7,024 nt of DNA from a virus (lineage: Duplodnaviria > Heunggongvirae > Uroviricota > Caudoviricetes), in the IMG/VR virus record IMGVR_UViG_2547132272_000021, positions 1-7,024 of that record; one strand, 5' to 3'. The position numbers and the translations under genes were made by a program. Of this stretch, positions 1 to 7,024 are shown one piece after another; positions within the stretch are counted from its first letter, which is position 1, and each line of letters opens with the position of its first letter. Below the pieces are notes generated by a model. The model ran no database searches. It was not told the origin of the DNA and saw nothing but the letters and a program-made list of their open reading frames with translations.

Positions 1-82
1 CCATACCCACGGATTACGGGTGCTGGTCACTGCCCCTTCCAGCTTAAGCTCTCCGCTGAAATCCTCTCCCGGCGTGTTCCAG
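1..82 (-). pseudogene. Distal part of a host ORF interrupted by the insertion (exported-protein-like)
   Basis: The minus-strand frame is open from 82 to the window edge (...WNTPGEDFSGELKLEGAVTSTRNPWVW) and has no start codon of its own. It joins in frame to the 6981-7024 fragment once 83-6980 and one TCCAG copy are removed. Confidence 0.6.
78..82. repeat. Target-site duplication, left copy (TCCAG)
   Basis: TCCAG lies immediately outside the TG terminus at 83. An identical 5-mer lies immediately outside the CA terminus at 6980. The match does not extend on either side. A 5-bp duplication is the Mu transposition signature. Confidence 0.85.
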
Positions 83-87
83 TGTGA

Positions 88-109
88 TGGTTCATGATAA
101 ATACGAAAA
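88..109 (+). repeat. MuA-type transposase end-binding site, L1-like
   Basis: TGGTTCATGATAAATACGAAAA matches 18 of the 19 specified positions of TGNTTCAYTNNAARYRCGAAAR. It occupies nt 6-27 from the terminus, which is where I recall Mu L1 lying (TGTAT-TGATTCAC... in Mu, TGTGA-TGGTTCAT... here). Confidence 0.85.
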
Positions 110-215
110 GAATAATCCGGGATTAGGTTAGTAAAGACGGGAATAGATTGGAGTGAAAAATCTTTTGTATCAGCAGTTTGTTAGCGCAAAGATATGTGTT
201 GGTAAAGTTATCCCT

Positions 216-237
216 TCATTTCTGTGAAACACGAAAA
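216..237 (+). repeat. MuA-type end-binding site, L2-like (weaker first half)
   Basis: TCATTTCTGTGAAACACGAAAA matches the AARYRCGAAAR half perfectly, but the TTCAY half is degenerate, giving about 14 of 19 positions. It has the same orientation as L1. Confidence 0.6.
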
Positions 238-256
238 AATGAAAGGATTACGTGAT

Positions 257-278
257 TGTTTCACTAAAGAGGCGAAAA
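257..278 (+). repeat. MuA-type end-binding site, L3-like
   Basis: TGTTTCACTAAAGAGGCGAAAA matches 17 of 19 consensus positions and has the same orientation as L1. It starts 41 bp after the L2-like site, which resembles the L2-L3 spacing I recall for Mu attL. Confidence 0.75.
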
Positions 279-393
279 GATGGTTGATTGTATAAAGTCT
301 TCAAATATGTTCAAAACCGCTTCAATACTGCATTTGAAGCTGGTTTAAGGTGGGGCATAGGTGTCTGATAACAGAATTTACTATAAACTTTGT

Positions 394-403
394 TGATGCA
401 TCA
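394..403. promoter_or_regulatory. Perfect 10-bp palindrome TGATGCATCA (candidate operator)
   Basis: The sequence is self-complementary. It shares the TGCAT core with the 476-493 palindrome and with 505-509. Confidence 0.35.
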
Positions 404-426
404 TGAATTTAAATGTTTTTATTTAA

Positions 427-439
427 AATCAATGCGTTA
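427..439 (+). promoter_or_regulatory. IHF consensus match (WATCAANNNNTTR)
   Basis: AATCAATGCGTTA fits every specified position. It is preceded by an A/T-rich tract (405-426) and lies between the two TGCAT palindromes. Confidence 0.45.
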
Positions 440-475
440 GTGAATATTACATGATACATAGGTGTAAAGTAGCGC

Positions 476-493
476 ATTGCATATCTATGCAAT
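476..493. promoter_or_regulatory. Inverted repeat ATTGCATA-tc-TATGCAAT (candidate operator)
   Basis: It has 8-bp perfect arms and a 2-bp spacer. It lies about 25 bp upstream of the candidate promoter. Confidence 0.4.
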
Positions 494-516
494 ATGTGTC
501 GGATGTGCATAAACAC

Positions 517-545
517 TTGCCAACCAATTTTATTGTTGATAACTT
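517..545 (+). promoter_or_regulatory. Candidate sigma70 promoter of the immunity operon
   Basis: TTGCCA (517-522), a 17-bp spacer and TAACTT (540-545). Alternatives are TTGATA (536-541), 16 bp, GATAAA (558-563), or the TATAAA at 545-550. The choice between them is ambiguous. Confidence 0.35.
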
Positions 546-552
546 ATAAAAG

Positions 553-571
553 CACTCGATAAAGTCGAGTG
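553..571 (+). other. Stem-loop CACTCGA-taaag-TCGAGTG at or near the predicted 5' end of the immunity transcript
   Basis: It has a 7-bp perfect stem and a 5-nt loop, with no U-tract after it. It could be a 5' stabiliser hairpin or a palindromic operator overlapping the alternative -10. Confidence 0.3.
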
Positions 572-685
572 TCGGGCGTAGGAACCCGTGTAAGCACATG
601 GCGACACAAGACGCGCCAAGCGTCTTTTTTATTGTCGTAATATCAGCGCACCTGCATTCAGTGGCTTATGGTGCACCGTATCTAT

Positions 686-761
686 GGTGGCGCTGGTGGG
701 GCAGTCGAAAGGCTGGCCGGTTTCCTTGTGCGCCGGTATTCCTACCCCCGCCAGCGTCACC
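686..761 (+). ncRNA. P1 C4 / P4 CI-type immunity antisense RNA (about 76 nt)
   Basis: A 16-bp closing stem pairs 686-701 with 746-761 (14 Watson-Crick plus 2 G.U pairs). An inner hairpin pairs 717-720 with 733-736. Its 12-nt loop (721-732, TTTCCTTGTGCG) is complementary to 805-816 across the icd-like Shine-Dalgarno sequence. The single-stranded TTCCTAC (739-745) is complementary to GTAGGAA at 775-781 and 578-584. The size and position upstream of an Icd-like gene match the P1 C4 (77 nt) and P4 CI RNAs. Confidence 0.7.
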
Positions 762-774
762 GCCCCTTATGAGT

Positions 775-816
775 GTAGGAACTCAGGCGGTGACTCCTTA
801 AATTTGCACGAGGAGG
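775..816 (+). promoter_or_regulatory. Antisense-RNA target boxes (a2-like 775-781, b2-like 805-816) covering the icd-like RBS
   Basis: TGCACGAGGAGG (805-816) pairs with the RNA loop 721-732 through 8 Watson-Crick and 4 G.U pairs, and it contains the GAGGAGG SD (810-816). GTAGGAAC is repeated at 578-585, which is the a1-like copy. Confidence 0.6.
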
Positions 817-823
817 CTGCCAA

Positions 824-1021
824 ATGGCTACGACCCCAACCACTTTACGCTCTGAATTTACCTTTCATTTTCTGGCTGTTCGCCGTTCCGATCTGAACGA
901 CCGCCCACACCGCGAATCTATTAACGCACCTGATGAAGCAACTGCCCGTCGTATGCTGGCACGTGATTTTGTGTTGGTGTTTGCTGCCTGCATCCCTGCT
1001 AAAGGGGGTAAACATGAATAA
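824..1021 (+). CDS. icd: Host cell division inhibitor Icd-like protein (65 aa)
   Basis: The motif F.FLAVRRSDL..PH....A.DEA.ARRMLARDFVLVFAA is characteristic of Icd-like proteins of P1 and P4-type elements. A strong SD (GAGGAGG) lies 7 nt upstream of the ATG. Confidence 0.8.
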   Translation: MATTPTTLRSEFTFHFLAVRRSDLNDRPHRESINAPDEATARRMLARDFVLVFAACIPAKGGKHE

Positions 1022-1418
1022 TGTTGTCAAGTTTCCGGTGCGGAATAATAAAAAAGTTGCGAAATCGAGAGAAGATATTGCTGTAAATCTGTTTAAAGAT
1101 ATTGTTGCTGCTTTATCAAAACAGGCGCGTGACTATATTAATGATGGCGTTACCGGGATCAATGGATGCCTAGATGGTAATGGCGGATATGAAACCTTTC
1201 TATCCTCTTTGTTGCTTTATATTCGTGGCATTGACTCAAAAATTGGCCTGTTTAGTATGTCTCTTGATTCAATACATCCAATACTACATGATGCATGCAA
1301 TGACTTAACGAAAGTTATTTCCCTGACGGAGCGTTTTATTGAAAGTAGAGGCGTAATCGCAGAGGCGGCAAATGGAAAACTTACAGAAGAACAAACGCGG
1401 CAGACTTTCAAAAATTGA
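1014..1418 (+). CDS. Hypothetical protein (134 aa) in the ant/eps position of the immunity operon
   Basis: The ATG at 1014 is preceded by GGGGG (1004-1008) and overlaps the icd-like stop (ATGAATAA), which suggests translational coupling. I recognise no family for this protein. Confidence 0.6.
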   Translation: MNNVVKFPVRNNKKVAKSREDIAVNLFKDIVAALSKQARDYINDGVTGINGCLDGNGGYETFLSSLLLYIRGIDSKIGLFSMSLDSIHPILHDACNDLTKVISLTERFIESRGVIAEAANGKLTEEQTRQTFKN

Positions 1419-1734
1419 ATTGCTGCCTGAAAAGATAAAAAGGAAGCTTGATAAAATGCTTATCTCACGTAAGTATTCTCAGGCTGAAATTCTAAATATC
1501 ATAGATCAGGATATAGTAATAGCAGGGTGTTCAGAACTGGTCATATCCAAAACCGGATTGAACAGATATGCGATTAGTTTAATCAATGCTGTTTCGGTAG
1601 CCAAGAAGCATGGAGAAGTGTCTCGCCGTTATAAGCATGCCGAACTACACAGGAGACTTGATAAACTTGAATCAAAGATAGACAGATTAGGGACCAGACT
1701 TGAACGAGTGTTAGAGCTTCTCGAAAAACATTAA
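1372..1734 (+). CDS. Mu gp27 / DUF3486-like small-terminase-like DNA-binding protein (120 aa)
   Basis: The N-terminus KRGRLSKIELLPEKIKRKLDKML...SQAEIL...ISKTGLNRYA fits the R.SK+D.LP.E+R..+D..L......+..EI......+S+S.L.RY pattern of Mu-like gp27 proteins, followed by a coiled-coil C-terminus. An SD (GAGG) lies 6 nt upstream of the ATG. Confidence 0.6.
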   Translation: MENLQKNKRGRLSKIELLPEKIKRKLDKMLISRKYSQAEILNIIDQDIVIAGCSELVISKTGLNRYAISLINAVSVAKKHGEVSRRYKHAELHRRLDKLESKIDRLGTRLERVLELLEKH

Positions 1735-1741
1735 CTATCCC

Positions 1742-1767
1742 AAAGCCGCCCCGTGCGGCTTTTTTAT
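1742..1767 (+). terminator. Rho-independent terminator ending the immunity/terS-like operon
   Basis: AAAGCCGC-cccgt-GCGGCTTT gives an 8-bp stem that runs into a T6 tract, 8 nt after the stop codon. Confidence 0.85.
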
Positions 1768-1935
1768 TGTTTGGCACTCGCTGTACATATCAGCGCATAT
1801 TTCATGGAAAACGGTAAATCTATCTTCCCTAAAAATCCCGAGTAATCTCACAGCATCCAGAGCAAACGGAGATGGTTCTTTTTTGAAAAAATTATGTTTT
1901 ATCACAATCGGGGATAAACTTATTTTTGATTCCCA

Positions 1936-1970
1936 TATCCGCAATAATCGTTATCGTAACATTGCGGATA
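1936..1970. promoter_or_regulatory. 10-bp perfect inverted repeat TATCCGCAAT-N15-ATTGCGGATA (candidate regulator-binding dyad)
   Basis: It sits in the 287-bp non-coding gap (1768-2054) upstream of the Mor-like genes. It is interdigitated with CGTTATC (1949-1955) / GATAACG (1967-1973), and a tandem ATCGCGC-ATCGCGC lies at 1998-2011. Confidence 0.4.
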
Positions 1971-2054
1971 ACGTTAAGTTTGCTGCAAGCATTGGCTATC
2001 GCGCATCGCGCTCAAATGTACACAGGTATATGCAAAAGCTTAAGCGAGAAGATT

Positions 2055-2783
2055 ATGGCTAAACAAACCTTTAAAAATCTCATGTTAACGCCGCCACACA
2101 ATGATATTACAGCGATAAATAAATTCATTGTTTCTTCATGCTTTTCTCGTGATATCTGTGATGTTATGTCTTATATCGGTAAAATGGGATATGCATGTAA
2201 TTATAATGAAGTCAGTGAGCATGTGAAATTGATTGAAAAACAATTCCACGCAGTAAAACATGAACAGAGAGGCGAGTGTGAAATTGATGTTTTTTGTAAT
2301 GTCGCAGGCACCGCTCTCTTTAATGAATTTATATCTGTTTGCGGGAAACAGACGTTCTATCTTGATGCAATGAAATTTGAACCGGATTTTTTTAGTGGTG
2401 GCCCGGTTAAGCATATCCGCAAAACTGCTATTATCGCTTTATTGAGAAATGAAACAAAGATTCTTCCAGAAAGTGTGACCATGATTATGGGCGCTATTGA
2501 GGCGGCATTAAAAAAAATTGGAGTAGACCCACAAGAAGAAGTAAACAGCACGACAAAAATATTCATTGCAACAAAGGCATTTCTGGAAGTTGTAGGTGGA
2601 ATTCAGTTTTATTTACCTAAGGCCGACTCACTTAGTAGAATAATGAAAAAAGCAAATATATATGCAGATAGTTATGTTATGTCTCCTGCTGAACTAGCTA
2701 TTAAATATGGGGAGTCTGGTAAATCGATATACACAACAATAAAACATGTAGGAGCGGTTATTGGTAATCATGAGCAAAGTTAA
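2055..2783 (+). CDS. Mor/C-family transcriptional activator paralog with a roughly 130-aa N-terminal extension (242 aa; start uncertain, alternatively 2016)
   Basis: The C-terminal ~110 aa (LKKIGVDPQEE...VVGGIQFYLPKADSLSRIMKKANIY...MSPAELAIKYGESGKSIYTTIKH) aligns with Mu Mor as I recall it (LSRLGVDPAHS...LGGGQVYIPRGQALDSLIRDLRIW...VSELTTRYGVTFNTVYKAIRR). Confidence 0.65.
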   Translation: MAKQTFKNLMLTPPHNDITAINKFIVSSCFSRDICDVMSYIGKMGYACNYNEVSEHVKLIEKQFHAVKHEQRGECEIDVFCNVAGTALFNEFISVCGKQTFYLDAMKFEPDFFSGGPVKHIRKTAIIALLRNETKILPESVTMIMGAIEAALKKIGVDPQEEVNSTTKIFIATKAFLEVVGGIQFYLPKADSLSRIMKKANIYADSYVMSPAELAIKYGESGKSIYTTIKHVGAVIGNHEQS

Positions 2784-3192
2784 CATAAATAATGCACACA
2801 TATTACAAACAGGTCTGAGCCTCGGTATTGATGTAATGAGAAGTAATCTTCCTGAAGAGTTAAAACTTGTAGAACGTGCAGTTATTGAATCATGTAATGA
2901 TATTGGCTTAAATCCAGAGCATGAAATTAATGGTTTATCATTTATTGGTCGGGTCATATTAAAAATAATGGAACTACAAACCGGATGTAGTTTCATACCT
3001 GAGTATGCGATTGATTCATCCAGAATTATTTTTATTTCTAAAGTTGCTGCATATGCAGAAAAATTTGGAGCAGATAAAGCAGCCAAAGCCTACTCCATTA
3101 CAGTAGATCAGGTTACGGAAATGATGAATGAAGCAAGTATGTTTGTTTCCCAATTTGATGATTTTGGTATAGACAAGGAGAAAAGCCACTGA
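2770..3192 (+). CDS. Second Mor/C-family activator paralog (140 aa)
   Basis: LPEELKLVERAVIESCNDIGLNPEHEIN parallels LPESVTMIMGAIEAALKKIGVDPQEEVN of the upstream protein. G-C-S-F-IPE corresponds to the GG.Q.YIP motif, and the C-terminal AKAYSITVDQVTEMM is HTH-like. The gene overlaps the upstream gene by 14 nt. Confidence 0.5.
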   Translation: MSKVNINNAHILQTGLSLGIDVMRSNLPEELKLVERAVIESCNDIGLNPEHEINGLSFIGRVILKIMELQTGCSFIPEYAIDSSRIIFISKVAAYAEKFGADKAAKAYSITVDQVTEMMNEASMFVSQFDDFGIDKEKSH

Positions 3193-3246
3193 AACACGCT
3201 GTGATGTTGTTTTGTCTTATCGGCGGTGTTCTGGGTGCCCTGCACC

Positions 3247-3290
3247 TTTTTGAAGGTGCTACGGTGTTTTTGAAGGGGTTTTGAAGGGGG
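3247..3290 (+). repeat. Three direct TTTTGAAGG(G) repeats in the gap upstream of the gpI-like gene (candidate activator-dependent late promoter region)
   Basis: The copies are TTTTTGAAGG at 3247-3256, TTTTTGAAGGGG at 3267-3278 and TTTTGAAGGGGG at 3279-3290, with a degenerate TTTTGCA at 3291. The first copy lies inside the hairpin GCACCTT-tttg-AAGGTGC (3242-3259). I could not find a convincing sigma70 -35/-10 pair. Confidence 0.4.
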
Positions 3291-3300
3291 TTTTGCATCC

Positions 3301-4140
3301 ATGACAGAGGAACTAATGAATATAATCGCTTTATGCACTGATTTATCGGGTGATAAGACTCCTCCGGAATGGGTTGAGTTACTGCCAGCAGGACCGGAAA
3401 TTGAAGGGCGTGACGGAAGGAGCTGGACACTTAAAGATCCACAAAGCATTAAACAGGCGTTTTCGTGTCGCGGAATGTCACTTGTGGTCGATTATGAACA
3501 CTCTACAGAAGTGATTGCACCAAAAGGTGGCGAGGCTCCTGCCGCCGGATGGATTAATGACGTTGCTGTCCGTAATGATGGTTCTGTATGGGGAAGAGTT
3601 GAATGGACTCCACGGGCAATGAATTCCATTACATCCCGTGAATACCGATACCTTTCACCAGCGTTCCGTCATTCTCAGGATGGTGAAATACTGGAACTCG
3701 TTAGCGTGGCGTTAACGAATAAACCAAATCTGAAACTTACTGCGCTGAATACTCAGCAGACACTTAGCAAAATCGCACTGGCACTTAATATGGAGGAAGT
3801 TAATTCACTTGAAGAAGTGCTGACAGCGTTAAATAAAAGACAAGCTGAACAACATAGTCAGATTGTAAATGAATATATCGAAAAAGCTGTTTTCTGTCCG
3901 GCCCAGCGGAATATTCTTCTGTCCATGTGTTCAAGTGTTGGAGAAAATGCATTCAGGAAGTTTGCTGATATGCAGGAAAAATCGACGAGTAATTTTTTAC
4001 ACTTTGCTAGGCCTGTAAGTGTAAAAGGTAAAGAACCCCCGAGAACGCTTACTGAATCGCAACTGGCTGTTTGCCGCATTACAGGTGTAAGCGAAGAAGA
4101 CTATTTGATAGCTTTAGGAAAAGAAAATGAAAGATATTAA
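3301..4140 (+). CDS. Mu gpI-like prohead protease / scaffold (279 aa)
   Basis: PEWVELLPAGPEIEGRDGRSW...DYEHS...AGWI...VEWT..A...I....YRYLSPAF... is the Mu-like prophage I protein signature. The C-terminal third is helical and charged, which is scaffold-like. Confidence 0.85.
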   Translation: MTEELMNIIALCTDLSGDKTPPEWVELLPAGPEIEGRDGRSWTLKDPQSIKQAFSCRGMSLVVDYEHSTEVIAPKGGEAPAAGWINDVAVRNDGSVWGRVEWTPRAMNSITSREYRYLSPAFRHSQDGEILELVSVALTNKPNLKLTALNTQQTLSKIALALNMEEVNSLEEVLTALNKRQAEQHSQIVNEYIEKAVFCPAQRNILLSMCSSVGENAFRKFADMQEKSTSNFLHFARPVSVKGKEPPRTLTESQLAVCRITGVSEEDYLIALGKENERY

Positions 4141-5023
4141 TTGTGTAATTGCTGATGCTACTATCGCTTTTAACGCCAAGTTTGAATCAGGAAAAAAAGC
4201 CTACAATCCTGTACATCCAACGATTGCTTCAGAAGTAACGTCTTCATCGGCAGTTAGTGCTTATGGCTTCCTCGAAGATTTCCCGGAAATCAAAGAGTGG
4301 TTAAACGACCGACAGTTAAAATCACTGTCAACCCGTGATTATTTTCTGAAAAATAAAACGTTTGAAAGCAGCATTCAAATTAAACGTGAGGATTTTGAAG
4401 ATAATGATTATGGTAAGTATTCAATGGTTTTTGAACAGTACGGGCGCAAAGCGGCTGCATTCCCTGATAAGTTACTGTTTGAAGCTATGAAGAAAGGGCA
4501 CTTATCAGAAGGAATTGATGGGCATAACTTCTTTGCTACTGACCATCCTAATGGTGAAGGCGTTTATTCAAACCTCTATGGAAGCAATCCAGCAAAAAAT
4601 GCAGATGCAACGCCGTTATGGTACTTATTTGATGGTAGTCAGGGATTGAAACCTTTTATTTATCAGGTTCGTCGTCCAATGGCTGTAACTTCTGTTACTG
4701 ATTCCGGCGCTACCGATGTGTTTCTGAATAATCGTTTTCTGTTTGGTGTTGATGGGCGTCTTAATGTTGGATATGCAATGTGGCAATGCGCAGCGGCATC
4801 ATGGGATACGCTGAATGAAACCACATTTAATGAAGTGTACGACGGGATGTTATCCGTTAAGGGAAGTAGCGGTGAACCATTGGGAATCGTGCCTACTGTT
4901 ATTGTAGTCCCCGTATCGTTAAGAGCCGCAGCGGAAAAATTGCTGTTACGTCAGTATCTGGATAACGGGGAAGACAATCCAAATTATAAACGCGTGGAAA
5001 TTATTGTTTCACCATTTATTTGA
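4127..5023 (+). CDS. Mu gpT-like major capsid protein (298 aa)
   Basis: It is colinear with Mu T as I recall it, over segments such as YGFLEDFPEIKEWLNDRQ, FESSIQIKREDFEDN, DGHNFFATDHP, LKPFIYQ, NVGYAMWQ, VVPVSLR and NGEDNPNY. An AGGA SD lies 7 nt upstream, and the gene overlaps the gpI-like gene by 14 nt. Confidence 0.9.
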   Translation: MKDINCVIADATIAFNAKFESGKKAYNPVHPTIASEVTSSSAVSAYGFLEDFPEIKEWLNDRQLKSLSTRDYFLKNKTFESSIQIKREDFEDNDYGKYSMVFEQYGRKAAAFPDKLLFEAMKKGHLSEGIDGHNFFATDHPNGEGVYSNLYGSNPAKNADATPLWYLFDGSQGLKPFIYQVRRPMAVTSVTDSGATDVFLNNRFLFGVDGRLNVGYAMWQCAAASWDTLNETTFNEVYDGMLSVKGSSGEPLGIVPTVIVVPVSLRAAAEKLLLRQYLDNGEDNPNYKRVEIIVSPFI

Positions 5024-5029
5024 TAATTC

Positions 5030-5054
5030 GGAGGGGATTTCCCCTCCTGTTTTT
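5030..5054 (+). terminator. Rho-independent terminator/attenuator directly after the capsid gene
   Basis: GGAGGGG-attt-CCCCTCC gives a 7-bp GC-rich stem followed by TGTTTTT, 6 nt after the capsid stop codon. Confidence 0.75.
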
Positions 5055-5066
5055 ATGGGGAATATA

Positions 5067-6854
5067 ATGAGTAATAAGTTAAGCACGGAAATACTGATAA
5101 ATCTTACGGGAAATCTTACCGCTAAAGCACGACAGTACGGCGCAAATATGTCGCAGTTCGCCCGTAACCATCAGAAGGCAATGCGACTGGTCAAGGCCAC
5201 AACTGAATCCGCCACGCGTGGCCTTGATATGCTGGGTAATCGTTACACAGCGATGATTGCAGGTTTTGCAGGTAGCGCCATGATGCGTGAGTTTGCACAG
5301 GTTGATCGCCGGATGACCCGTATTGGTATTGCCGCAGAAAAGACGCGCGACGAAATGGCACAGATGCTGAATGGTATTCAGGACACCGCCATCAAATTTA
5401 AGGTTGATGACAGTGAACTGATAAGCGCGGTGGAAAAAGTTGGCACAATAACAGGCGAGATTGAGTTTGGCATCAAGAATAAGGATGTTATGGCGGCCTC
5501 CATCGCGGCTTCAGGAAGTGAAGGCGAGTTCATTGGCTCGCTGTTTTCCCTGTTTACGAAGTTTGGCATTAAGAATGAAGACGACTCACTGAAGGCCATG
5601 GACACCCTGAACCTGCTGGGGAAGGAAGGTGCCTATGAATTGAAAGACTTTGCAGAAAAATCCACCCGCGGGATGTCGCTGTATGCCGCTGCAGGTGGAC
5701 GGGGCGTAAAGGGTGTCAAGGAGTTTGGTGTTGTAATGGAATCTGCTGTGGATGCCACCGGGAACCGTGATACAGCAGCCACAACGGTGGAAAATTTCAT
5801 AAAAGATTTGCAGAACCCGAAAGTCGTCAAAACGCTTAAGCATAATGGCATTAACGTATTCGATAGCGAAGGCCATATGCGTTCACTGCCCGTTCTTCTT
5901 CAGGAGATTGCCACCCGCTCGGGAAGCAAAGGCTCGGAAATACAATCCAAACGACTGGATGAAGCCGGATTTCTTGATGACGCAAAAATGTTAATCAAAT
6001 CGGTAACGTCCGGTAAAGGCGCAGAAAACCTGCAACGCTATATGAAAGTCGTCGGTGATGGAAAAGGCATCATGAAGGATGCCGCATATGCCGCACAGGA
6101 CTTTACGTCTTCCATGCAGGCGCTGGAAACCAGCTGGAAAAAATTCTCTCATAACCAACTGGCAAAACCTGTTCAGGAACTGGCTGATGCCATTAACAGT
6201 GTCGACCAGAACACTGTCCAGAACTGGCTACAGGTTGCCAAATACATGGCGATTGCTGTGGGCGGCATTATCGCCGTGCGTAAGACGTACAAGCTCGGTA
6301 AAACCATCCACGACATCATGAATCCCAAAGAGAAAGGCAAAGGGATACCCGGCAGTATTACGGATGTTTTCGGTTCTGGCGTGATGCCAGTGTATGTGGT
6401 CAATATGGGCAGCGGTGGGATGAATGGTAATACCAGTGGTTTGCCGGATGCGCCGGATTCATCACGCAATCCCCGTGGACCAAAGACGCCAACACTGGTT
6501 ACACCACAAACGGTATCAGGATTTAATCTCCTTGACATGGCGCTATCTGCTTTCCCCAAAAATAAAGAGGAAGCTGACGCGTTAATCGCACGGGTTCAGG
6601 AAAACAACAACCGCCCGACGGTATGGACGGATATTAAGAACTGGTTTAACTCTCTGGAGAAAAAGAACATCGCCGCTCCATCTCCGTGGGATGTCCTGCA
6701 ATCCACACAGAACGCGCCATTCGTACCACAGCAATTGCAGGGAGAAATCCGTGTGGTGGTGGAAGGTGATGCACGCGTGAAAAGCGTCAGAGTGGATCAA
6801 CCTGGCGTCAGACTTAGTGCTCAGGCAGGGGTTACCAGTGTAGAACAAAGTTAA
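5067..6854 (+). CDS. Tail tape-measure-like protein (TP901/PhageMin_Tail-type core; 595 aa)
   Basis: The central region (FAQVDRRMTRIGIAAEKTRDEM...AASIAASGSEGEFIGSLFSLFTKFGI...NLLGKEGAYELKDFA...GINVFDSEGHMRSLPVLLQEIA) looks like tape-measure core repeats. The C-terminal part has a hydrophobic segment (YMAIAVGGIIAV) and a Gly-rich stretch. I chose the ATG at 5067 because GGGGA lies 6 nt upstream, whereas the TTG at 5004 would overlap the capsid gene and the terminator. Confidence 0.7.
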   Translation: MSNKLSTEILINLTGNLTAKARQYGANMSQFARNHQKAMRLVKATTESATRGLDMLGNRYTAMIAGFAGSAMMREFAQVDRRMTRIGIAAEKTRDEMAQMLNGIQDTAIKFKVDDSELISAVEKVGTITGEIEFGIKNKDVMAASIAASGSEGEFIGSLFSLFTKFGIKNEDDSLKAMDTLNLLGKEGAYELKDFAEKSTRGMSLYAAAGGRGVKGVKEFGVVMESAVDATGNRDTAATTVENFIKDLQNPKVVKTLKHNGINVFDSEGHMRSLPVLLQEIATRSGSKGSEIQSKRLDEAGFLDDAKMLIKSVTSGKGAENLQRYMKVVGDGKGIMKDAAYAAQDFTSSMQALETSWKKFSHNQLAKPVQELADAINSVDQNTVQNWLQVAKYMAIAVGGIIAVRKTYKLGKTIHDIMNPKEKGKGIPGSITDVFGSGVMPVYVVNMGSGGMNGNTSGLPDAPDSSRNPRGPKTPTLVTPQTVSGFNLLDMALSAFPKNKEEADALIARVQENNNRPTVWTDIKNWFNSLEKKNIAAPSPWDVLQSTQNAPFVPQQLQGEIRVVVEGDARVKSVRVDQPGVRLSAQAGVTSVEQS

Positions 6855-6856
6855 AT

Positions 6857-6887
6857 ATATGCTGTATATCACAAAATAGCAGCATAT
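6857..6887. repeat. Inverted repeat ATATGCTG-N15-CAGCATAT after the last gene, containing a possible degenerate third MuA-type site
   Basis: It has 8-bp perfect arms. The loop and right arm (6865-6886, TATATCACAAAATAGCAGCATA) share TCACAAAA with the R1/R2-like sites but match only about 10 of 19 consensus positions. The orientation is opposite to R1/R2. Confidence 0.25.
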
Positions 6888-6931
6888 TAATTCAATGCGT
6901 CCGATTTTTTATTCGGTGGTGTTTTGTTTTT

Positions 6932-6953
6932 TTTTCGCGCTTTTTGTGAGATG
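6932..6953 (-). repeat. MuA-type end-binding site, R2-like
   Basis: The minus strand reads CATCTCACAAAAAGCGCGAAAA, about 15 of 19 consensus positions. It directly abuts the R1-like site in the same orientation. The two 22-mers are 20/22 identical. Confidence 0.75.
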
Positions 6954-6975
6954 CTTTCGCGCTTTTTGTGAAACG
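6954..6975 (-). repeat. MuA-type end-binding site, R1-like
   Basis: The minus strand reads CGTTTCACAAAAAGCGCGAAAG, 17 of 19 consensus positions. It occupies nt 6-27 from the CA terminus, exactly mirroring the L1-like site at the other end. Confidence 0.85.
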
Positions 6976-6980
6976 CCTCA

Positions 6981-6985
6981 TCCAG
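6981..6985. repeat. Target-site duplication, right copy (TCCAG)
   Basis: It is identical to 78-82 and directly abuts the CA-3' terminus. Confidence 0.85.
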
Positions 6986-7024
6986 GCCAGTACACAGGAA
7001 GGCAGGAGGCTGGCAGCAAACAGA
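6981..7024 (-). pseudogene. Proximal part of the interrupted host ORF (signal-peptide-like segment)
   Basis: The minus-strand frame reads LFAASLLPSCVLAW. In the present state it runs on into the element end (MRRFTKSAKASHKKREKKTKHHRIKNRTH) and stops at the TGA complementary to 6892-6894. In the reconstructed empty site it continues as NTPGEDFSGELKLEG... Confidence 0.6.

Follow-up and report, generated by a model that had tools for sequence, protein, structure and literature searches.

The question raised by this locus is what a pair of overlapping, adjacent plus-strand genes, which end at positions 2783 and 3192 in the list of open reading frames (ORFs), does for a small element related to bacteriophage Mu. 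The window, that is, the whole 7,024-nucleotide (nt) stretch of DNA analysed (positions 1 to 7,024 of the IMG/VR virus record IMGVR_UViG_2547132272_000021), holds a 6,898-bp element at 83-6980. An earlier inspection of the letters alone, here called the sequence-only reading, took the two genes (ORF1 and ORF2) for tandem Mor/C-family activators, the first with a long novel N-terminal domain, and invoked the two-step cascade in which Mor and C act in Mu. Activators of this family are a model for late-gene timing in transposable phages, and recent work describes them as tetramers needing the replication clamp. By homology, ORF1 is a genuine Mor/C family member at the domain level, of atypical architecture; ORF2 is read here as a functional Mor-fold derivative that probably does not bind DNA, not as a second activator; and the cassette consists of three genes, not two.

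The family assignment of the first protein was confirmed by a hidden Markov model (HMM) search. The C-terminus of ORF1 was recognised as a Mor domain by Pfam PF08765 (E 4.9e-8, 33.4 bits against a cut-off of 24.9; the match covers residues 181-284 of a 285-amino-acid (aa) reading of ORF1), the protein matched the PHROG 'late transcriptional activator' (1.4e-12), and it aligned with a profile of 19 classical Mor/C proteins at 99.5% in hhalign (E 9e-23). Against Mor of the helper-type prophages described below, BLASTP gave 2e-9 with ~25% identity. ORF1 belongs to the same fold family as Mu C (PDB 9L0X; Foldseek probability 0.97), although its sequence match to C is much weaker than to Mu Mor (PDB 1RR7, 9L0Y), the ORF1 family profile giving E 0.43 for C and 4.5e-8 for 1RR7. 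Residues ~117-242 match the dimerisation helices, the GGxQ(F/V)Y(I/L)P linker and the helix-turn-helix (HTH) of Mor. In the linker of ORF1, GGIQFYLPKA, the invariant G, G, Y and P are kept, and the position of G79 of C is occupied by A in ORF1 and by G, A or S in its homologs. An HTH is predicted, with a recognition helix, SGKSIYTTIKH, resembling TYKTVYQAIKR of the helper Mor; the DNA-contact positions in the HTH of C are S110, Q113, Y115, Q116 and R120, and this copy has M in place of R98 and H in place of R120.

The architecture is atypical all the same. Members of the family are described as small proteins (~100-150 aa) in which the N-terminal dimerisation half is acidic, the C-half is basic and the linker has the invariant residues G70, G71, Y75, P77 and G79 (PMC2582627), and the halves of Mor, C and the helper Mor were found to carry charges of -3 to -9 (N) and +5 to +8 (C). 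ORF1 departs from this pattern, having 242 aa against ~130 in Mu Mor and charges of +2 and +2 in the two halves of its Mor domain. A private N-domain replaces the acidic N-terminus of Mor, 5-7 residues are inserted in the dimerisation half, and the clamp-binding motifs and the basic tail of Mor are lacking.

The sequence-only reading placed the start of ORF1 at 1926, and some automated gene callers give a 285-aa form as well; this start was not upheld, as all 22 homologs begin at the ATG at 2055 (MAKQTF.../MAEKTF...) and the Prokaryotic Genome Annotation Pipeline (PGAP) also gives 242 aa. The long N-terminal domain is novel indeed. Its ~115-135 residues are conserved across the 22 homologs, found in Escherichia, Citrobacter, Klebsiella, Yersinia, Serratia, Pectobacterium and Salmonella, while HMMER, run exhaustively against 1.84 billion representatives, returned only 4 clusters, all of them the element family or frameshifted fragments, and no match to a known fold was obtained. 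An internal repeat of the Mor domain was ruled out (hhalign 0.6%), and the idea that GemA or another early protein of the helper had been fused to ORF1 was dropped, as none of 20 helper-type proteins gave an HMM match. The domain displays two motifs, PPHxDI (residues 14-17, 2094-2105) and FFCDVxGT (residues 80-86, 2292-2312), in which P14, D17, F80 and V83 are invariant and H15, C81, D82, G85 and T86 nearly so; the motif residues could be a metal- or ligand-binding site.

ORF2 proved to be a paralog of ORF1, as had been claimed (BLASTP E 3e-6 against the ORF1 Mor domain; hhalign 87.9% with three ORF1 sequences in the profile, and 96.5%, E 8e-10 over 97 columns, with 22). The insertion in the dimerisation half (EING.S) is common to both and has no counterpart in Mor, C or the helper Mor, which points to a tandem duplication within the element lineage. 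ORF2 is linked to the family only via ORF1: searches of Pfam, PHROGs, NCBIfam, PADLOC and the PDB sequences gave no match, the classical Mor/C profile aligned at 6% in hhalign, and the top Foldseek match of the ORF2 model, Mor (1RR7), was not significant (E 1.5).

Most of what Mor and C use to contact DNA is missing from ORF2. Its linker, QTGCSF-IPEY, keeps two of the five invariant residues (G71 and P77) and has lost the tyrosine of C Y75, two residues are deleted at the position of C R98, the recognition helix (TVDQVTEMMNE) and the tail are acidic, and the net charge of the C-half is -4 against +5 to +8 in classical proteins; counterparts of the C DNA-contact residues Y75, R98, Y115, Q116 and R120 are all absent. 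Because of the lost linker residues, the R98 deletion and the acidic recognition helix and C-half, ORF2 is unlikely to bind DNA as Mor or C does. Constraint on it nonetheless exceeds that on ORF1, with a ratio of nonsynonymous to synonymous substitution (dN/dS) of ~0.1 and dN of 0.2-0.3 against 0.33-0.59 over four divergent locus pairs, and its start overlaps or abuts the end of ORF1 in all intact elements, the two genes being translationally coupled. Two copies are without an intact ORF2. In the E. coli-type copy L011 (6829-7943) it is deleted and an insertion sequence (IS) lies upstream of the cassette; in the Salmonella copy L007 (8739-8927) a 62-aa remnant is left, the protease and gpT genes are fused and the tape-measure gene is broken. 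Both are read as decaying copies because of the IS insertion or the broken tape-measure gene. Thus, of the proposal that both proteins are Mor/C activators, the part concerning ORF1 stood as far as family membership goes, while for ORF2, with no direct Mor/C match and its DNA-contact features lost, the activator label is doubtful and ORF2 should not be filed under it.

The third gene, which the sequence-only reading missed, encodes a 59-aa protein (Table 1). It was found in every family locus with 50-67% amino-acid identity (tblastn, alignment), a conservation exceeding that of ORF1, and has a dN/dS of ~0.13; the Salmonella copy has an ATG start. Its stop codon overlaps the ATG of ORF1 (ATGGCTAA), and its reading frame differs from that of ORF1. 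The HTH of this protein is weakly like the N-terminus of Mu Gp27 (Pfam Gp27 matches in 6 of 8 members, the best 3e-4, below the cut-off), and phrog_15000 matched at 1.5e-4. For all three cassette genes dN/dS lies between 0.10 and 0.25, indicating purifying selection. For annotation, the gain is a missed gene and a corrected ORF1 start that automated callers also miss. The cassette block had further been called the most A+T-rich part of the element: its GC content is indeed below that of the whole element (0.359 against 0.426), but the left end (83-551) is lower still (0.328).

Table 1. Features of the cassette and its flanks; positions are those of the window.
Feature	Position	Strand	Remarks
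Intrinsic terminator	1742..1762	+	Terminator scan; RNA fold -11.6 kcal/mol, z -2.15, then U-run
Candidate Mor-type box ATGGA-AAACGG-TAAAT (5-6-5)	1804..1819	+	Position conserved in 7/8 family types
-10-like hexamer TAATCT, no -35	1843..1848	+	23 nt 3' of box; T, A and final T invariant across family loci
59-aa protein, unannotated	1883..2062	+	Basic, isoelectric point (pI) 10.2; TTG start; conserved in all family loci
ORF1, 242 aa	2055..2783	+	Private N-domain (~1-115, 2055-2400), long helix, Mor domain (~117-242)
ORF2, 140 aa, acidic degenerate paralog	2770..3192	+	pI 4.9; ATG 2770; 14-nt overlap with ORF1 end
Strong gyrase site homolog	3234..3290	.	Dyad 3234-3246 and three direct repeats TTTGAAGG at 3249, 3269 and 3280
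Head-gene start: Mu I-type protease, then gpT and tape-measure-like gene	3316..4140	+	Pfam Mu-like_Pro, gpT; PGAP start

The candidate Mor-type promoter at 1804-1848 is the sole one in the element. In a pattern scan each element gave a single match to box plus -10 on the plus strand, always upstream of the cassette. Assuming a start near 1855, the centre of the box lies at ~-43.5 to -44.5, and the Mor box at Pm and the C boxes are published as centred at -43.5 (PMC4390567, PMC2582627); proteins of the family bind a 16-bp dyad at this position. The element cassette is thus preceded, like the Mor-dependent promoter of Mu, by a 5-6-5 box near -43.5 and a -10 without a -35. The family consensus is AATGAAnnnnGGTwAATCC, a spacer of 22-23 nt, TAnnnT, and then a Shine-Dalgarno sequence and a small ORF. 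Pm of Mu has AGTAAAGCCGGTTAAT-N22-TATCCT, and the helper-type prophages have AATGAAGCCGGTAAATCC-N20-(-10) at Plys and PI, with box type and distance as at the element promoter. C boxes of the form TTAT-N5-6-ATAA were not noticed, no search aimed at them having been made. Covariation of the promoter half-sites with the ORF1 recognition helices was considered; the eight elements offer too few types for any statement.

The sequence-only reading had pointed to 3193-3300 for the promoter of the head operon. Promoter and pattern scans disclosed neither a Mor box nor a -10 in this segment, and no convincing terminator or promoter-like site was found in 3193-3315. The segment aligns instead with the right arm of the Mu strong gyrase site. 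Its three exact TTTGAAGG repeats, spaced 20 + 11 bp against 21 + 12 bp in Mu, align with TTTAAAAC/TTTAAACC/TTTAACGG of Mu, starting 12 bp right of the annotated gyrase cut site (genes G/I); the alignment partners are 9392-9437 of Mu (L008) and 13505-13552 of a helper-type prophage (L040). The other elements carry TTTAAACG-type repeats with equal spacing, and the helper-type prophages carry corresponding repeats upstream of the PI promoter. In Mu, the arm to the right of the cut contains repeat motifs and is essential, and the site functions best at the genome centre (PMC10052514); the homolog lies at ~0.46 of the element length. The segment 3234-3290, upstream of the protease gene, has the position and the repeats of a Mu-type strong gyrase site and is predicted to be one; sites of this type are marked by strong cleavage by gyrase in the presence of quinolones and stimulate transposition. 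Given the alignments to Mu and to the helper-type prophage, the triple repeat is assigned to the right arm of the gyrase site, and the idea that it is a promoter or is bound by Mor/C was rejected. The box and -10 that follow the repeats in the helper are deleted in the element, where the repeats abut the Shine-Dalgarno sequence of the protease gene. Because the sole Mor-type promoter lies upstream of the cassette and no terminator or promoter was detected before 3316, cassette and head genes look like one operon, the simplest reading being that it would run from ~1855 through the head genes.

The element itself appears to be a non-autonomous, satellite-like mini-Mu derived from Mu, and the earlier description of it as a 6.9-kb element of this kind is supported. 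The left end, TGTGATGGTTCATGATAAATACGAAAAG..., resembles Mu attL and the right end, ...CGCGCTTTTTGTGAAACGCCTCA, resembles Mu attR, and a 5-bp target duplication, TCCAG, is present on both sides (78-6985 including the duplication). No transposase, repressor or integrase was found to be encoded in the element by the ORF list and a Pfam search, and it appears to move by helper transposition. Insertions in Escherichia coli differ in site (a LysR gene, yddA, puuC, an autotransporter gene and others), some genomes carrying 2 copies, and the same gene order occurs in elements of Escherichia, Citrobacter, Klebsiella, Yersinia, Serratia, Pectobacterium and Salmonella. A literature search disclosed no published description of natural Mu satellites. 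The cassette block, ORF1, ORF2 and the right end of the element had no DNA or protein match in 50,697 phage records, and a scan with one genome per species returned a single distant Mor, so that the element family is rare among representative genomes.

The likely helper is a Mu-like prophage that has a single Mor gene and accompanies the element in 8 of the 9 carrier genomes; the helper-type mor gene is present in 33 of 5426 E. coli genomes against those 8 of 9 carriers (Fisher 7e-18). The prophage of E. coli UMNF18 (L041 12382-40427) has Mu-like ends, one Mor and AATGAAGCCGGTAAATCC boxes at Plys and PI, and the same 18-bp box is found, identical, at both promoters of the ETEC1732 prophage (L040). 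By Pfam, the co-resident helper type has no C gene; it has one Mor-family gene and, at the late promoters, boxes of one type. In UMNF18 the head-tail genes of the prophage have suffered a deletion.

The account that we favour, somewhat short of an even chance, is that the cassette heads a single activator-dependent operon of a mini-Mu satellite, in which helper Mor would fire the promoter, ORF1 would bind the boxes and ORF2 would modulate. Upon helper induction, helper Mor would act on the element promoter and the cassette would be expressed; read-through across the gyrase site would then give expression of the element protease, capsid and tape-measure genes. ORF1 would bind Mor boxes and sustain its own operon, and may also act at the Plys and PI boxes of the helper, its private N-domain standing in for the clamp-binding tails of classical Mor/C proteins. 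ORF2 would not bind DNA; with the dimerisation half that it retains, it would contact ORF1 or helper Mor and act as partner or modulator of that protein. Because just two of the four HTH motifs enter DNA in the C-promoter complex (bioRxiv 10.1101/2025.05.02.651988), a hetero-tetramer with DNA-blind subunits is structurally conceivable, by way of speculation.

A bolder form of this account, rated rather unlikely, is that ORF1 and ORF2 constitute a satellite Mor switch independent of the sliding clamp, made of a DNA-binding subunit with a new effector domain in place of the clamp-binding tails and a DNA-blind subunit that co-assembles with ORF1 or with helper Mor, and that this switch would enable the transposing satellite to take over or throttle the replication-coupled late transcription of the helper. 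If true, a satellite would here be seen for the first time to manipulate an activator of the Mor/C type, and the element would be the first natural satellite known for transposable phages.

The two proteins are of interest as natural separation-of-function variants, one a Mor domain without clamp motifs and with a new N-domain, the other a conserved paralog without DNA-contact residues. Both are encoded by an apparent natural mini-Mu satellite that has promoter boxes, a gyrase site and ends in common with the co-resident helper. The role of the pair would show how a parasite of a transposable phage senses and rewires its helper, and the cassette could be used to test which parts of the Mor fold serve DNA binding, oligomerisation and activation.

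Several observations weigh against the favoured account. Mor and C carry sliding-clamp-binding motifs, an N-terminal Qx[D/E][L/M]F and a C-terminal QPDLF, which are family-wide, and mutation of the clamp motif cripples activation in vivo (PMC12867686). The C-terminal Q..L[FL] is present in 18 of 19 classical proteins and in 0 of 22 ORF1 and 0 of 7 ORF2 homologs; the N-terminal motif is likewise absent from the ORF1 homologs (0 of 22), and a weak ELF was seen in 1 of 7 ORF2 homologs. ORF1 also lacks the basic C-terminal tail, truncation of which disables Mor and C according to a cryo-EM study (bioRxiv 10.1101/2025.05.02.651988). Since the clamp motifs and the basic tail, needed for full Mor/C activity, are missing, ORF1 might bind without activating. 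The promoter pattern by itself is not rare, with ~0.2-0.5 chance matches expected per element, for which reason the promoter is argued for by the conservation of its place and its likeness to the helper boxes; moreover, the Klebsiella-type elements (L005, L010, L012) deviate from the pattern, and the left half-site of the E. coli element is shifted outwards by 1 bp relative to that of the helper box. Confidence in the ORF2 model is modest (predicted local distance difference test, pLDDT, 65), and the co-occurrence statistic is inflated by the clonal relatedness of the human isolates, several carriers being probably clonal.

The best-surviving alternative, which we consider unlikely, builds on the first of these points. 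It holds that ORF1 and ORF2 are dominant-negative towards helper Mor: ORF1 would fill the boxes, ORF2 would make dead hetero-oligomers, neither would recruit the sliding clamp or RNA polymerase properly, and lysis and late expression of the helper would be damped or delayed, which would benefit the satellite. Such interference fits two proteins deprived of motifs that nearly all classical members have, as a Mor motif mutant cannot activate Pm in vivo (PMC12867686), and it fits an ORF1 without the basic tail, loss of which disables Mor and C, and an ORF2 that retains the dimerisation half and not the DNA-contact residues; the late boxes of the helper are, in addition, of the type that ORF1 should recognise. 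However, the element operon uses a matching box type, so that a pure competitor would shut off the capsid genes of the element itself, and C proteins mutated in the clamp motif remain able to activate from un-nicked DNA in vitro, with part of their activity left in vivo (PMC12867686). A conserved N-domain of 115-135 aa also exceeds what a simple dominant-negative protein would need.

Comparison with known satellites helps to place both the favoured account and its rival. Phage P4 uses Delta, a homolog of the late activator Ogr of its helper P2, and a box shared by P4 and P2 allows cross-activation in both directions. The element resembles P4 in having a diverged, duplicated homolog of a helper late activator and a helper-type box at its promoter: ORF1 is homologous to the helper-type Mor, the box is of the helper type and no transposase is encoded. 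ORF1, whose recognition helix resembles that of helper Mor, may trans-activate helper promoters as Delta does. The likeness has its limits, since Delta and Ogr belong to the zinc-finger proteins and have no relation to Mor, and the duplication in Delta lies within one fused protein whereas in the element it has given two separate genes, one of them degenerate. P4 moreover relies on an integrase to integrate and on a primase of its own to replicate, unlike the element, which appears to move by helper transposition. In the Staphylococcus aureus pathogenicity islands (SaPIs), PtiA and PtiM inhibit the helper late activator LtrC by protein contact. They offer, by analogy, a model for the interference alternative and for ORF2; the Pti proteins, however, have no homology to LtrC.

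A role outside transcription is quite improbable. Here the Mor fold would have been reused as a DNA or protein clamp, for marking element DNA for packaging by the helper or for transposition, or for re-sizing the capsid; the 59-aa protein and a 120-aa protein encoded upstream resemble only the N-terminal HTH of Mu Gp27, the cassette adjoins the gyrase-site homolog and the head genes, and the N-domain of ORF1 has no known fold. Yet the Mor domain of ORF1 retains, in its linker and HTH, the features by which promoter boxes are read, a matching box stands at promoter distance from a -10, and no homology to any packaging or scaffold protein was found.

Still less probable is the Mor-then-C mini-cascade, in which one paralog would switch on the target of the other and the second would activate a head promoter in 3193-3300. 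Two tandem family members are present and Mu itself uses Mor and then C, but ORF1 and ORF2 overlap behind one promoter and would be made together, not in sequence; ORF2 lacks DNA-contact residues and its C-half is acidic; 3193-3300 offers the gyrase-site homolog in place of a box and a -10; and the co-resident helper type makes do with one Mor-family gene, by Pfam, and one late-promoter box type. The cascade that the sequence-only reading borrowed from Mu is accordingly not supported. That the cassette is a functionless leftover of a decaying Mu-like prophage is hardly credible and was already disfavoured, as dN/dS is 0.10-0.25 over saturated synonymous divergence and the gene order is kept across seven genera (Escherichia to Salmonella), while the two copies without intact ORF2, which would speak for decay, are the ones carrying an IS insertion or a broken tape-measure gene.

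Upstream of the cassette, the terminator in Table 1 has a counterpart in the corresponding place at all family loci; it is predicted to close the upstream gp27N-like gene and to isolate the cassette from leftward transcription. The product of this gene, the 120-aa protein (1372-1734), matches Mu Gp27 (small terminase) in its first 64 positions only and continues as a coiled-coil tail. The element therefore has, together with the 59-aa HTH protein, two truncated small-terminase-like putative DNA binders, which could redirect packaging. Further to the left, Rfam matches to isrK (552-630) and to C4 antisense RNA (680-767) lie upstream of ash-like and icd-like ORFs; by these matches the left end of the element holds, at 552-1021, an RNA-controlled module of the phage P1 immI type. 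It may control the following genes, for a 135-aa protein and the gp27N-like protein. A tRNA or tmRNA had been considered for the G+C-rich left part; none was found, the region being isrK and C4 RNA.

Downstream, the head genes of the element (3316-6854) encode the I-type protease, the gpT capsid protein and a full-length tape-measure homolog. At 274 aa the protease is shorter than its counterparts in the helper type (320 aa) and in Mu (361 aa), which indicates that part of the scaffold region is missing; the tape-measure gene has ~84% DNA identity to the helper type. This gene content suggests satellite-built, possibly smaller, capsids and some involvement with the tail. Between the gpT and tape-measure genes, at 5030-5047, a strong hairpin is followed by a T-run, at the position of the Mu terminator after gene T, and this hairpin may attenuate expression of the tape-measure gene.

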